From positions 30,690,001 through 30,754,000 of the forward strand of contig NC_091477.1 of assembly GCF_036971445.1 (NCBI RefSeq): a DNA stretch of 64,000 nucleotides. Direction: 5' to 3'. The translations under genes and the position numbers were made by a program. Origin of the DNA: Narcine bancroftii. Taxonomy: Eukaryota. The notes beneath the pieces are model-generated. The model was not told where the DNA came from, ran no database searches, and worked only from the letters and a program-made list of their open reading frames with translations. Below, piece after piece: positions 8,012-54,519 of this stretch (positions are counted from its first letter, which is position 1; each line of letters starts with the position of its first letter).

Positions 8012-8065
8012 GCTGTTGATACCAATTTGGCAGCTGTTGATAGTCACTGGATCTTCATAAATGAG
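8012..8065 (+). CDS. GRID2: Delta-type ionotropic glutamate receptor (GRID2-like), internal exon equivalent to exon 5, amino-terminal domain
   Basis: cccatttgcAG|...|GTaatt; 54 nt, phase 0-0. Translates AVDTNLAAVDSHWIFINE, matching the GluD1 AVETNLASKDSHWVFVNE / GluD2 VVETNLVAFDCHWIIINE exon (recalled). Too short for the ORF track. The symbol is the closest named gene; orthology is uncertain. Confidence 0.85.
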
Positions 8066-9029
8066 GTAATTGAAATTGCGTCGAACGAGTCCTACAATGT
8101 ACCAGAACTTTGTCAAATATGAGTGTAAATTGTATTTGTTGCTTAAACTGTGTGCATATACAGAAAACAGATGTGTAGCTTATTCACCTAGAAACTTGTT
8201 TTATAGCCACATAAAGACGAATGCTCACTGAAGGCACAGATTTATAATTTCATGATCCATTGTGTTCATTTCATGTCATGTGTAAGCATGTCCAATTATT
8301 GCCTTATTGAAATCATTGTTTTTTAAGAAATTCTGATCGTTATTTGACTTACATATAGTTTTTGGCCTACTACTCAATAAATAATTTCTATTTTGGAGCT
8401 GTAGATCGAACAGATATTTGCTCAACCTTATATTGGAATACAAGAACAGGAGCAGACTTTTCAGGCCTTGAGCCTTTCTTACTAATCATTTGCATAGTGA
8501 TGGATTCACATCGATATATTGTGATTGCCTGCGATCACATGCCTGAAAACACATATTGAACTTGAAGCAATCATTTTCATTTTTGAAAATATCCACGAAT
8601 TTTGAGGGATGTGAGTTCTAAGCTTTGTGTGAAAGCGGGTTTCACTCCCTGGACTATGGTTTCCTTGTTTTGGATTTCTGCACCAAAGAAAATACATTTT
8701 CGCTAACAAACCTTCAACTTGTTTTATCGTTTATAAGTTCCTCAATTATACAACTTGCCACATTCATGAAAATAAAATTCATAAATGTTCCATGCTTTGA
8801 ATTTGTAACAGGTTATGTGTGTATTTTAATGTTGCATATGTTTTTTATTTGCTACTTTGAAAATACTGCACCACATATTAACTAATGCAAACATCGATAG
8901 CATGTATGATAAGTATACATGGTAGATGTCAGAAGAATAATTGACAGATTTCCCACCAAAATAATACTGCTATTCTTCATATACCAAAGAGTTGATAATT
9001 CCGATGAACTCTGAAATTGAAGGTTAATT

Positions 9030-9258
9030 TTTTTTAAATTTCGACTTACCGTATGGTAACAGGCCCTTTCAGTCCACGAGTCTGTGCTGCCCAATTACAT
9101 CCAATTAACCTACAACCCATGGTATGTTTTGAACAGCGGTAGGAAACCAAAGTCCCCGGAAGAAACCTACACAAAAATGGGGAGAATGTACAAGCTGCTT
9201 ACAGCCATTGCGGGATTCGAACCCAGGTCCTGATCACTGGTGCTGTAACAGCGCTTCG
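9030..9258 (-). mobile_element. tRNA-derived SINE
   Basis: Perfect B box GGTTCGAATCC on the - strand; same core and tail as the other SINE copies. Confidence 0.8.
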
Positions 9259-9339
9259 TCCTCTTAGCCCAAAGCACCATGTGACATGACCCCTGCTCCC
9301 ATTGCCAAGCCTCCTTGCTGGTGTAGACCTGAACCCATG

Positions 9340-50460: not shown

Positions 50461-51411
50461 ATGAAGATTCACAAAATTGCACAAAATGAAGATAACCTGA
50501 AAAGGTTATCCTTTTCCTTTATGATAAGTGGATTTGTTGGTTTAATTTTAATTATCCTGTATTTTTTTTAAATCTTAAGATCTATTGCGATTTGTTGTAA
50601 TAGCAATTAATTGATTTATATTGGTAATTAACAGATAATCACTATTAATATTAAGGGATGGAATTTAAAATAAGACACACTGTATTTACTTATTTTATGT
50701 TATGCATACATTAATATTTTGCCTTGCTTTTTAATATTTTGTATATGGATGGTTATGTCAAATTCAACAAAAAATATTTGAAGAAGAAAGAAGAATAGCT
50801 AGAAAATTGAGCTATGATTGTGAATTTTTGTAAAATAGCCTGAAATATCTCATCAATTTTATATTGTGGCATTTTTTTTCCCGAAGCCCCCATTTCTTTT
50901 TCAGAAGATTGAAACTCTACTATCTTGAATGTGCAGAATTTAAACAAAGTTCCTGTCTCTTTAGTCAAGAAATAATTTAAGTTGATTGATATTTCCACGT
51001 GGCCTTAATGCAAATACTACCTTGACCAGAAATCAGATCAGATTACATATAAAACCACTTAAAAGCAAACTATTGATTAATACATTTACTAATTGCTAAA
51101 GTCCATTTAATTATTTTAGGTGTTTTAATTAAGGTTTTCTTCTGAGTGCTCAGGTTGGTAAAATTATTTGATATTATTAATGTATAATGTCAACGTCAAA
51201 AAACCTTTAATAGAGCTATCTGTGTGCTACCAAGAGGACTGATAAATTTTCACATTCAATTTTTATTGATGTGAGGGGAAGAATTCATTAGAGAAATTAA
51301 ATGTGAGTTGTTGGCTGAAGAGTTTCATTAGTCTGTAGTTTCCTTATGTCAGGGAACTTGTTTCAAAATTATTCTTTTGCTGAAAGTTATTCTTTGGTCT
51401 AATCTATGCAG

Positions 51412-51573
51412 ATCTCCAATCTCTATGTATATGACAGTATTTTGCTGCTGGCAGATGCATTCCATAAGAAGCTGGAAGATCGAAAATGGCATAGCATGGC
51501 TAGTTTGACATGCATAAGAAAAAATTCTAAGCCATGGCAAGGTGGAAAGTCTACATTTGATGCAATTAAAAAG
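51412..51573 (+). CDS. GRID2: GRID2-like exon equivalent to exon 7
   Basis: atgcAG|...|GTtatg; 162 nt, phase 0-0. Translates [54 protein letters not shown], with the delta-receptor hallmark [13 protein letters not shown] and the GluD2-type [10 protein letters not shown]. Confidence 0.93.
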
Positions 51574-53562
51574 GTTATGCATGTTTTATTTTAAAAATTC
51601 AGTAGTATTGCCACAATGAAATGGCAGGTTATAATCTATGTAAAACAATTAATTCACTTGGGAACGTAATGTTATAGAAAGGATTATAAAGCATGGAGGT
51701 ACATTTCTGGGCACAAATGATGTTCCAAACATGGAAATACTGGAGGAACTCAGCAGGGCTTGTAGCATCAATAGGAGGTAAATATATGTAACCAACATTT
51801 TGGCCTGAGCCCTTCTTCAAAGTACTCCCATAATCAGTTAAACAAGAAAATTTGTCGATGCAGATGCTGGGGTATCTTGCCATATATATATGCTAAACAA
51901 ATTCCATAATCACTTTATTTCTGTTCTCTGGATTGGAGAATTGTATTATTTCAGTCTCCAAACATACAATATAATCTGGAAAAAAATCAAGAATTCAAAT
52001 AATATTGTTGAATTGAACATTAAAAAAAAACATTTGATAGCTCATATCAATAAATAAAATATTACAAAATAAAGAGACTTTTGTTTATTCATTGTGGTTT
52101 TGTCAGTCTATGTAAAATTAATGGTTTTTTTTATGCAAATCCATCATATCCTTGCTGGAACCTTGAAAGAAACTCTGGGAGCTTTAAGGTTGCCTGTAAC
52201 TTTTGGGAGGCCTGCCTCTGTCTCTAGCAGCTTAATAACAACTTGTTTTCCATCTGTTGAGGTCACCTGTGCATTGAGTCTGATTTGCAGTTGAAATTTT
52301 CCAAAATCAGACAGATTCCAAAAATTGTGTGCTTGAGGCAAATAGCCAATCCTCTGACCAAGGTTGAGACACCAAGTGCTCTTTTATAAGGCTATCCACT
52401 AGTAAAATCAGCCTCTCTATTACCTGTGGAAGTAAAATCCTATGATCAGGAGAATGATTACTGGGCTTGCATTGCAGAACATTTGTGTTCATATCCCACC
52501 ATGGCAAACTGTCAAATTGAATTTTATAAACCTAGTGATTTGTGCAACATCACTGATTAGATCCCTAATGTCCTGTCTAGCCTGCATCTGATTGTAGTCC
52601 CCATTACTAATTGACTTTAATTATGCATCCGGGCTGCAAGCAAAAAATCTTAATTCAGCATATTTGTTCAAAAGATTAGACTGTCATCATAAAATCACCT
52701 CAAGCACCATACTGTATCTCTAGCGACTTCTGCTCAGTCAACCCTGCAATTGTTCCACAATAACAACAGTATTATGATACAGGTGGGGAAAATCGTCCTG
52801 CTCACAAAGTGCATTCTGAATTCATATAATCAATCTTGCAGATACATAACCTGCCATCAATAATCTGGATTCATCCATTACAATATCTACATAGGACAGT
52901 GTCTGATTTCTATGCAATGGTCCTGCTGCCTCTTGTCATCATTCCAAGTCAGCCATTGAAATGTCAGAATGTCTCGGATCTATACACGCAGTATTGAACG
53001 CAGAAGTCTGTATGACGGGTGGAGTTGTCCAAACATTCAGCTACGTTACATTGGGATGTCACGTCTTTCATACTACTTCTGGTCAAACCTGAAACAGGAT
53101 TAGAGAGCCTATTGAATTCAATTATCTATTTAGGTCTGTGGGTTAAGAAGCAATAAAGAATATAAGATTTTCTGAAGTTATTTTCATTGAATATTTGAAC
53201 TTTTTCTGAGAGTTTTAATGAAATTGAAATTATTTATTTCATTCTTCTAAAGTATTTAATTTCCTTGTGATTTTAATTGTTTTAATAGTCTCTTTGTGTT
53301 TAAGCTTAAAAATTATTAAAATCTTTGACTGCTTTAAAAGATAACAAAGCATCATCACCTGTCAAAGTCTGTCGGAGATTTTCAGTGGATGAGGACTATG
53401 CCTCACACCACCTGAAGCTCAGCTGCCATGTGGCCTTACTGCCTAACTAAAAGGGACAAGAGAACAGGATGATCAGTCTTCCCTACCTGGAACAAGTGAA
53501 TGTAGGGATGTGGGAAACTCTACTTAACAGGCTGTATCCAACCGAATCCATGCAAACTAGAT

Positions 53563-54519
53563 GTGAAAGGTCAAAGGAAATTGTTTACTGATAATCTACT
53601 ATCAACTTCCCTTATTTTTCATGTTTTTTGCTTACGAGGACTTTAAATTTCAGAATCCTCCAATAGTGCCCCTTCTTCTATTTGTAGGGGAAAGTGATTG
53701 GATTAACAGGCATGCTCAGTTTTAGAGATGATGGTACAAATACAAATGTCATATATGAAGTTCTTGGTACCAGTTACAGTGAGGAAAAGGATAGAGGGAT
53801 TCAACGGGTAAGTGACATTTTAATTTTTACATTAAATAGGTGATAAGCTATGCTACTCTTAATGTATTTTATCCTGGATTTCAACTGTTAGAACTCTCAT
53901 TTCAGGTAAACCACTTTTGTTATGATTTTTTTTCATCAGCTGAATATTATATTGTGGATATAATATTAATTTCAAATACAATTAAATGATGGTTTTCTTT
54001 TGTGTAGCATTCTATTTTGACGCTGAACAGAACTCGACCAGATAAAAAGTAGGACAAAAACCAAAATCAGGCATTCTGCCTCATATTGCCTATGTAGATC
54101 TATTCCAGTGACCAGCACAGCAGGCAGATTGATATCCAAACCTCCCAAGCATCACTGGGAGATTTTGGAATCTATCACAACCATTCTATCTTCTATGCTA
54201 ATGGTTGTACTTCCCAGAATCTAAGCCATTGATTGCCAGTACAGATCAGGCTGAAGCCTCACAAAAAGGCCAGGATATCCTGAATTGAGCACATTGATTC
54301 CGCAGGCGGATGTCCAAAGCTGCCCAAAACCCTCCCCTCCCCCATCCCGACACCTGTTAGGGGTAACACATTGCTCTACCTTTCCTGGCAGTTCATTGAA
54401 GGTTGAAGATATGTGGTGGTGAAAGGTCAAAGGAAATTGTTTACTGATAATCTACTATCAATTTTCCTTATTTTTCATGTTTGTTGCTTATGAGGACTTT
54501 AAATTTCAGAATCCACCAA
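53563..54519. repeat. Pair of 101-bp direct repeats (53563-53663, 54419-54519) bracketing the exon-8 equivalent
   Basis: gtgaaaggtcaaaggaaattg...tttcagaatcc.ccaa; 5 mismatches by manual comparison. Confidence 0.92.
53688..53807 (+). CDS. GRID2: GRID2-like exon equivalent to exon 8
   Basis: cttcttctatttgtAG|...|GTaagt; 120 nt, phase 0-0. Translates GKVIGLTGMLSFRDDGTNTNVIYEVLGTSYSEEKDRGIQR, with the GLTG..F and E.LGT.Y.E motifs of GluD exon 8. Confidence 0.88.

Follow-up and report, generated by a model that had tools for sequence, protein, structure and literature searches.

A third delta-type glutamate receptor locus in the electric ray Narcine bancroftii

Which delta-type glutamate receptor is encoded by the GRID gene that runs through a 64,000-nucleotide stretch of the Narcine bancroftii genome (contig NC_091477.1, positions 30,690,001–30,754,000 of the forward strand; "the window" below)? 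Mammalian delta receptors are described as the products of two genes (PMC10861852), and it is disputed whether they serve as channels or solely in adhesion and signalling (PMC12520249 against papers cited there). A preliminary description of the window had proposed a divergent, candidate third paralogue of mixed GluD1/GluD2 character. We find that the gene is intact and spliced, and we are highly confident that it represents a third delta-type receptor, here called GluD3 (GRID3). Taken as a whole, we consider it probable that this third ohnologue is a cerebellin–neurexin organiser with a closed-biased pore, kept across the cartilaginous fishes.

Gene structure and number of GRID loci

Assembled from the window and the loci on either side, the complete gene (positions 30,510,260–30,831,913 of the contig, called C21 below) has 16 exons and a 2949-nt frame of 982 residues with zero internal stops, and all 15 introns are of the GT-AG type. 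Its product is identical at 982/982 positions to protein P0418, an electric ray sequence labelled "delta-2-like". The window contains exons 5–9, all on the + strand. Exon 5 (8012–8065; 54 nt, residues 245–262) and exon 6 (37288–37461; 174 nt, residues 263–320, including C297 and C309) encode parts of the amino-terminal domain, exon 7 (51412–51573; 162 nt, residues 321–374) carries the loop with R344, and exon 8 (53688–53807; 120 nt, residues 375–414) completes the domain. The positions, strand, AG..GT ends, phase 0 and stop-free joining of these four exons are as first described; overlooked at that stage was a fifth exon, exon 9 (59854–59955; 102 nt, residues 415–448), which encodes the linker and the start of the S1 ligand-binding lobe.

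The exon 5 peptide is identical to that of the chimaera orthologue (18/18), and exon 6 is 88–98% identical to six cartilaginous-fish proteins. Exons 6 and 7 match GluD chains in the PDB with E values of 4e-21 and 7e-27, which argues against chance similarity, and their identities to chain 5kc8_A, counted from the match lines, are 38/58 and 44/54. The per-exon identities to GluD2 given in the preliminary description (12/18, 38/58, 44/54 and 21/40) proved to be the exact counts against rodent GluD2 (P0450). The amino-terminal domain, the S1/S2 ligand-binding domain and the M1–M4 channel are all present, as in other ionotropic glutamate receptors: the Pfam domains ANF_receptor, Lig_chan-Glu_bd and Lig_chan are found on orthologue P0001, and P0418 aligns over its full length to PDB glutamate receptor chains, with 1108–1309 bits for GluD vs at most 338 for kainate/AMPA receptors. 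A structure prediction for P0418 from a 25-row alignment (mean predicted local distance difference score 42, predicted template modelling score 0.26) was too poor to place Glu687 and was not used.

Splicing was assessed in assembled contigs from four public runs of one study, runs that the search tool only guesses to be RNA. The exon 6–7 junction is present in contigs of 4/4 runs, and the exon 7–8 and exon 8–9 (53807–59854) junctions in contigs of 3/4 runs each; the spliced-out introns 6, 7 and 8 have GT..AG ends.

The genome has three GRID loci, on C21 (GluD3), C8 (GRID2) and C15 (GRID1), and the same three were recovered with each of three queries: exon 7, a full-length orthologue (a stricter first look), and exon 2 of GRID1. 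The C8 exons are mostly 89–98% identical to ray GluD2, and those on C15 mostly 81–100% identical to skate GluD1. The C21 protein is 80–93% identical to cartilaginous-fish proteins named "delta-2-like", 58–60% to GluD2 (best PDB match 6lu9/9nwo) and 50–51% to GluD1, with which it shares the domain order. From exon 2 to its end, GluD3 covers ~0.28 Mb, compared with ~0.99 Mb for GRID2.

A protein database search gave seven matches at 82–100% identity, followed by matches of at most 62% (best 120 of 553). According to cluster listings, GluD3-type proteins occur in 20 cartilaginous-fish species (rays, skates, sharks and one chimaera), several of which also have a separate GluD2. Database entries from sharks and rays under the automatic name "glutamate receptor ionotropic, delta-2-like" are GluD3 orthologues, and the chimaera orthologue P0440 carries the label "delta-2". 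In data sets from sharks, rays and chimaeras, such labels can therefore denote GluD3, which affects studies of the cerebellum and the electrosensory system in these animals. Among 388 proteins collected from the listed matches, eight match GluD3 best at >45% identity, all from cartilaginous fishes, and no bony-vertebrate protein has GluD3 as its best match. Absence of GluD3 from bony vertebrates is suggested by these sequences, with limited weight, since only the best matches were listed and the 50% representative library would merge any bony-fish copy with other deltas. Of the earlier proposal of retention in cartilaginous fishes and loss in mammals, the first part is borne out; the second agrees with the 388 proteins and is not proven by them.

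Phylogeny and the duplicated neighbourhood

The main tree (LG+G4, 976 columns) was inferred from 39 of 59 collected rows, 20 rows being omitted. In this tree GluD1, GluD2 and GluD3 each form one clade (100/100), as do the vertebrate deltas to the exclusion of the invertebrate ones (100/100), and GluD3 is sister, with support of 100/99, to GluD2, whose clade includes bony as well as cartilaginous fishes; the duplication thus predates the split between these two lineages. Two hagfish rows group weakly with GluD1. Long outgroup branches were flagged, so that the position of the root is less secure than that of the three clades. A quick tree of 21 rows under a mixture model has the same topology, with a value of 91 for GluD3+GluD2 in the Shimodaira–Hasegawa-like approximate likelihood ratio test. 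Approximately unbiased (AU) tests reject a grouping of GluD3 with cartilaginous-fish GluD2 (p 2.6e-7), with GluD1 (p 2.9e-4), and of GluD1 with GluD2 to leave GluD3 basal (p 2.1e-4). Instead of nesting inside GluD2 or GluD1, GluD3 forms a separate clade; it is neither the GRID2 orthologue, being outside the GluD2 clade with GRID2 on C8, nor the GRID1 orthologue, the AU test rejecting that pairing and GRID1 lying on C15.

These data bear on the possibility that the gene is a GRID2 duplicate specific to cartilaginous fishes, or a mosaic of GluD1 and GluD2. Its detection in cartilaginous fishes only, a long stem branch (0.37 in the 39-row tree) and an exon 5 similarity of 13/18 to GluD1 and 12/18 to GluD2 would fit such an origin. 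We nevertheless regard it as very improbable and largely refuted by the AU test against cartilaginous-fish GluD2, by the separate contig, which has UNC5, synuclein, GPRIN and clathrin-light-chain genes of its own, and by the closer similarity to GluD2 than to GluD1 in 7/8 domains, S1 being tied. GluD3 does share DSHW, YDS and other states with GluD1. Of the motifs first described as GluD1-type, which also include FR.D and YSE, three (DSHW, YDS and GTSY) occur in the two hagfish rows compared as well, and chimaera GluD2 has YDS and GTSY, so that the "mixed character" is mostly a retained ancestral state. Because of the hagfish motifs and the domain-wise proximity to GluD2, together with the AU tests, we reject the mosaic.

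The neighbouring genes place GluD3 on a third copy of a shared block. A single-exon ORF (open reading frame) of the atonal-type basic helix–loop–helix (bHLH) class begins 18 kb downstream of the GluD3 stop on the same strand (ATOH1-like gene, C21 positions 30,849,815–30,850,432, L125:1186-1803, + strand; 205 aa), and its exact sequence is absent from the protein collection. Its closest other match (85%, the next being 66%, among 35 listed) lies on C8, 38 kb downstream of GRID2, under the label atonal homolog 1a; the C21 gene is possibly an orthologue of a fish atoh1b/c gene. The GRID2 and GluD3 loci thus have in common an atonal gene directly downstream, and at both an UNC5 gene lies tail-to-tail with the receptor gene. 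Synuclein genes are found on C8, C15 and C21 only (at distances of 2.0, 4.3 and 1.4 Mb to the identified GRID exons), GPRIN genes on exactly these three contigs, and UNC5 genes on these and on C5, a contig without a GRID match. A clathrin-light-chain gene is next in order on C21, and WAPL lies 0.3 Mb from GRID1 on C15. The C21 order UNC5–synuclein–GPRIN–clathrin light chain matches that of human 5q35, which makes UNC5A, SNCB, GPRIN1 and CLTB the candidate names of the C21 copies.

An ancestral GRID-...-SNC-...-GPRIN block has been described, in which SNCA and SNCB are sisters from the second duplication (Marin 2023, PMC10451939), and this agrees with the pairing of GluD2 and GluD3; GRID1 and GRID2 have been assigned to the Hsa4/5/10/2-8 paralogon (PMC3112091). 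With its duplicated neighbours on C21, GluD3 thus occupies what would be the third position of the ancestral GRID–synuclein–GPRIN block, and we have little doubt that it is a whole-genome-duplication ohnologue, the sister copy of GRID2. Its origin would date to the second genome duplication of vertebrates, with later loss in the lineage leading to bony vertebrates. In 400 kb of flanking sequence, 150 ORFs were scanned against Pfam (148 of 865 low-repeat ORFs of at least 62 aa, and two others), and the bHLH gene and fragments of reverse transcriptase were the only matches; such a scan overlooks short exons, and a CCSER-like neighbour is therefore neither shown nor excluded.

Searches of the main text of openly accessible papers gave no description of a third vertebrate GluD paralogue, and the words "shark" and "lamprey" do not occur in the family-wide phylogenies PMC10861852 and PMC6307864; gene-tree databases may already separate GluD3. 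GluD3 is a real, previously unnamed ohnologue with an unusual gate and pocket, and its sequence is already public under automatic names.

Cerebellin face, gate and ligand pocket

Residues were compared, in GluD2 numbering, across 15 GluD3, 18 GluD2, 16 GluD1, three hagfish and seven invertebrate rows. On the amino-terminal domain, D24, I26 (presumably a cerebellin contact), E61 and R345 are kept in 14, 14, 15 and 15 of the 15 GluD3 rows, one model lacking its start, and the entire KWHSM loop is conserved. The LEDRKWHSM loop and the three cysteines (C297, C309 and C354) are present and the N293 sequon of GluD2 is missing, as noted earlier and now seen in the alignment. In a homology model, D21, E58 and R341 of GluD1 are cerebellin contacts (PMC10840383), and R344, encoded by exon 7, is the equivalent of R341. 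Between chimaera and sawfish, the amino-terminal domain is 91% identical in GluD3 vs 87% in GluD2. As every contact residue checked is kept, and these residues are common to GluD2 and GluD3, the amino-terminal domain is predicted to bind cerebellin.

The gate differs. The motif SYTANLAAF reads TYTANLTAI in 14/15 GluD3 rows and SYTANLTAI in one. It was also read directly in the genome, and is a variant of the canonical motif, not a loss of it. Unlike in GluD2, A653T, F655I, A686E, S544T and Y688L/F are fixed in 15/15 rows, and S647T is found in 14/15; A653 is invariant in all 44 non-GluD3 rows, and Glu at 686 occurs in 0/137 representatives aligned at the site (150 examined). E450 is replaced by V, A or M in 14/15 rows and has been lost in sharks and rays, so that the upper-lobe glutamate tied to γ-aminobutyric acid (GABA) potency in GluD1 (PMC10861852) is missing there. 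Other residues are kept as in GluD2: T525, R530 and D742 are found in 15/15 rows, and A523, W741, Y770 (15/15), the Q618/Q619 filter, E531 and D535 are conserved as well. The residues Y613, K694, N720, N763 and P806, which correspond to the vertebrate "inactive" state (sites from PMC10861852), are present in 15/15 rows.

The tail ends in SSFL or STFL in 14/15 GluD3 rows vs GTSI in GluD1 and GluD2, and we take both ends to be class I PDZ ligands. The S/T-F-L end would still anchor GluD3 to PDZ scaffolds, with partners other than those of the GTSI end.

Published work gives these positions a functional context. In human GluD2 the pore is constricted at A653 (PMC12520249). The A653T change in GluA3, adjacent to the Lurcher site, stabilises the closed channel (PMC5639461). 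The potency of GABA at GluD1 depends in part on E450, and a starfish delta receptor is silenced when Ser at 686 is changed to Ala, which favours an inactive state (both PMC10861852). By analogy with GluA3, A653T and F655I would bias the GluD3 channel shut, and loss of E450 together with Glu at 686 would weaken GABA binding and alter that of D-serine or glycine. On these grounds, and given the "inactive" residues, we lean towards a postsynaptic cerebellin–neurexin organiser whose pore is biased towards closure and whose use of ligands is changed, a role predicted from sequence. With its cerebellin face kept and its gate and ligand cleft altered, GluD3 offers a natural separation of adhesion from channel function that is open to cloning and direct testing. 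More tentatively, GluD3 might be a third delta receptor of early jawed vertebrates that only cartilaginous fishes have kept and that became a ligand-independent or differently liganded organiser, in which Glu at 686 replaces or excludes the ligand carboxylate and the gate threonine, the substitution that shuts human GluA3, holds the pore closed. If true, it would provide a natural test, as old as the divergence of chimaeras and rays, of whether a delta receptor can do entirely without bound ligand or ion flux.

Several observations weigh against a closed pore or an altered pocket. The pore loop (Q618/Q619) and the core ligand residues T525, R530, D742 and Y770 are conserved, as in a ligand-binding, conducting receptor, and between chimaera and sawfish M2 and M3 of GluD3 are 90% and 94% identical. 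The chimaera orthologue retains E450, and Thr at 653 occurs in 8/127 motif-bearing library representatives, including two from amphioxus. Relative to controls, the ligand-binding lobes show no clear excess of clade-specific changes (S1 8/73 and S2 7/70 in GluD3 vs 7/62 and 5/64 in GluD2). Changes in upper M3 have unpredictable effects across delta receptors, the side chain at 686 probably makes no ligand contact, and selectivity is not fixed solely by the residues that bind ligand (PMC10861852). On the wider history of the gene, the absence from bony vertebrates rests on protein collections rather than genomes, and the evidence for expression on contigs from one study.

The same ohnologue could instead be an active channel, its changed gate and pocket retuning it to another ligand or causing a leak. 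Changes at the position-653 alanine can open NMDA receptors, and the strong constraint on the pore loop and M3 and the retention of R530, T525, D742 and Y770 fit such a channel. Human GluD2 is gated by D-serine and GABA in bilayers (PMC12520249), and the GABA-gated deltas of invertebrates such as starfish and acorn worm (PMC10861852) share with GluD3 D742, R530 and, in 5/7 outgroup rows, Thr at the first motif position (647). These invertebrate receptors are ~30% identical to GluD3; they retain A653 and have Ser at 686 and an acidic residue (E or D) at 450. The "inactive" state of GluD3 at all five sites and the reduced opening of the one direct analogue, GluA3 A653T (PMC5639461), make an active channel unlikely. 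Less likely still is a subunit that mainly modifies mixed tetramers with GluD2 or GluD1, by damping gating or swapping scaffold partners: the sister relationship to GluD2, identities of 65–68% in the amino-terminal (assembly) domain and 77–80% in the pore loop, and the different C-terminal end are consistent with this role, but the published description of delta receptors is of homotetramers (PMC10861852).

Neutral drift in a decaying copy might be read from the lower conservation of GluD3 than GluD2 in S2 (81% vs 90%) and the tail (65% vs 90%), and from Y496, which varies (Y/H/N) among orthologues. Since the gene has an open frame and normal splicing, since 20 species including a chimaera have labelled proteins, and since the gate and pocket changes are fixed rather than scattered, we give this explanation almost no credence and retain the closed-biased organiser as the preferred reading.

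Three further observations concern the same regions. Exon 12 of GluD3 has two AG acceptors 6 nt apart (L023:1520-1540), whose alternative use would add or omit Gly-Thr right behind the QQ selectivity-filter site; the insert, a difference from GluD2, is present in 13/15 GluD3 models, both forms occur among orthologue database models, and no paired acceptor is found at the corresponding GRID1 and GRID2 exons. In all three hagfish rows (P0389, P0122 and P0398) the gate-motif Asn is replaced by Ser and Y543 by Arg, a further natural deviation from the canonical gate. Ser at 686, the state of active invertebrate deltas, occurs in 8/16 GluD1 rows (P0277 and seven others).

Transcript variants and other features of the locus

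Contigs from 3/4 runs continue past exon 7 into intron 7 (window 51574–52075) and end at 51904–51979; one of them consists of spliced exons 6 and 7 before running on into the intron. The read-through frame stops after six residues, and AATAAA is found at 52049 and 52068. This could be a short transcript for a secreted amino-terminal domain, or the result of A-run priming in pre-mRNA. In 1/4 runs, a piece of intron 8 (window ~55020–55306) is spliced via a GT donor to exon 9; it has stops in all three frames and is therefore a non-coding alternative or cryptic exon. Exon 8 is skipped in one shark database isoform (P0003) and is bracketed in the window by a 101-nt direct repeat (95%; 53563–53663 and 54419–54519), the second copy of which lacks an exon remnant.

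The C21 synuclein gene (L039:1501-1662) retains a central stretch that other beta-synucleins lack. A cartilaginous-fish beta-synuclein with this stretch has been reported (PMC10451939); a PDB search gave 40 matches, all to alpha-synuclein, and does not set the gene type.

Mobile-element pieces lie in the introns at window positions 10579–12303, 23318–23713, 28771–29401 and 60589–61219, and include a reverse-transcriptase ORF at 11485–12300 and a repeat family of three to four copies.

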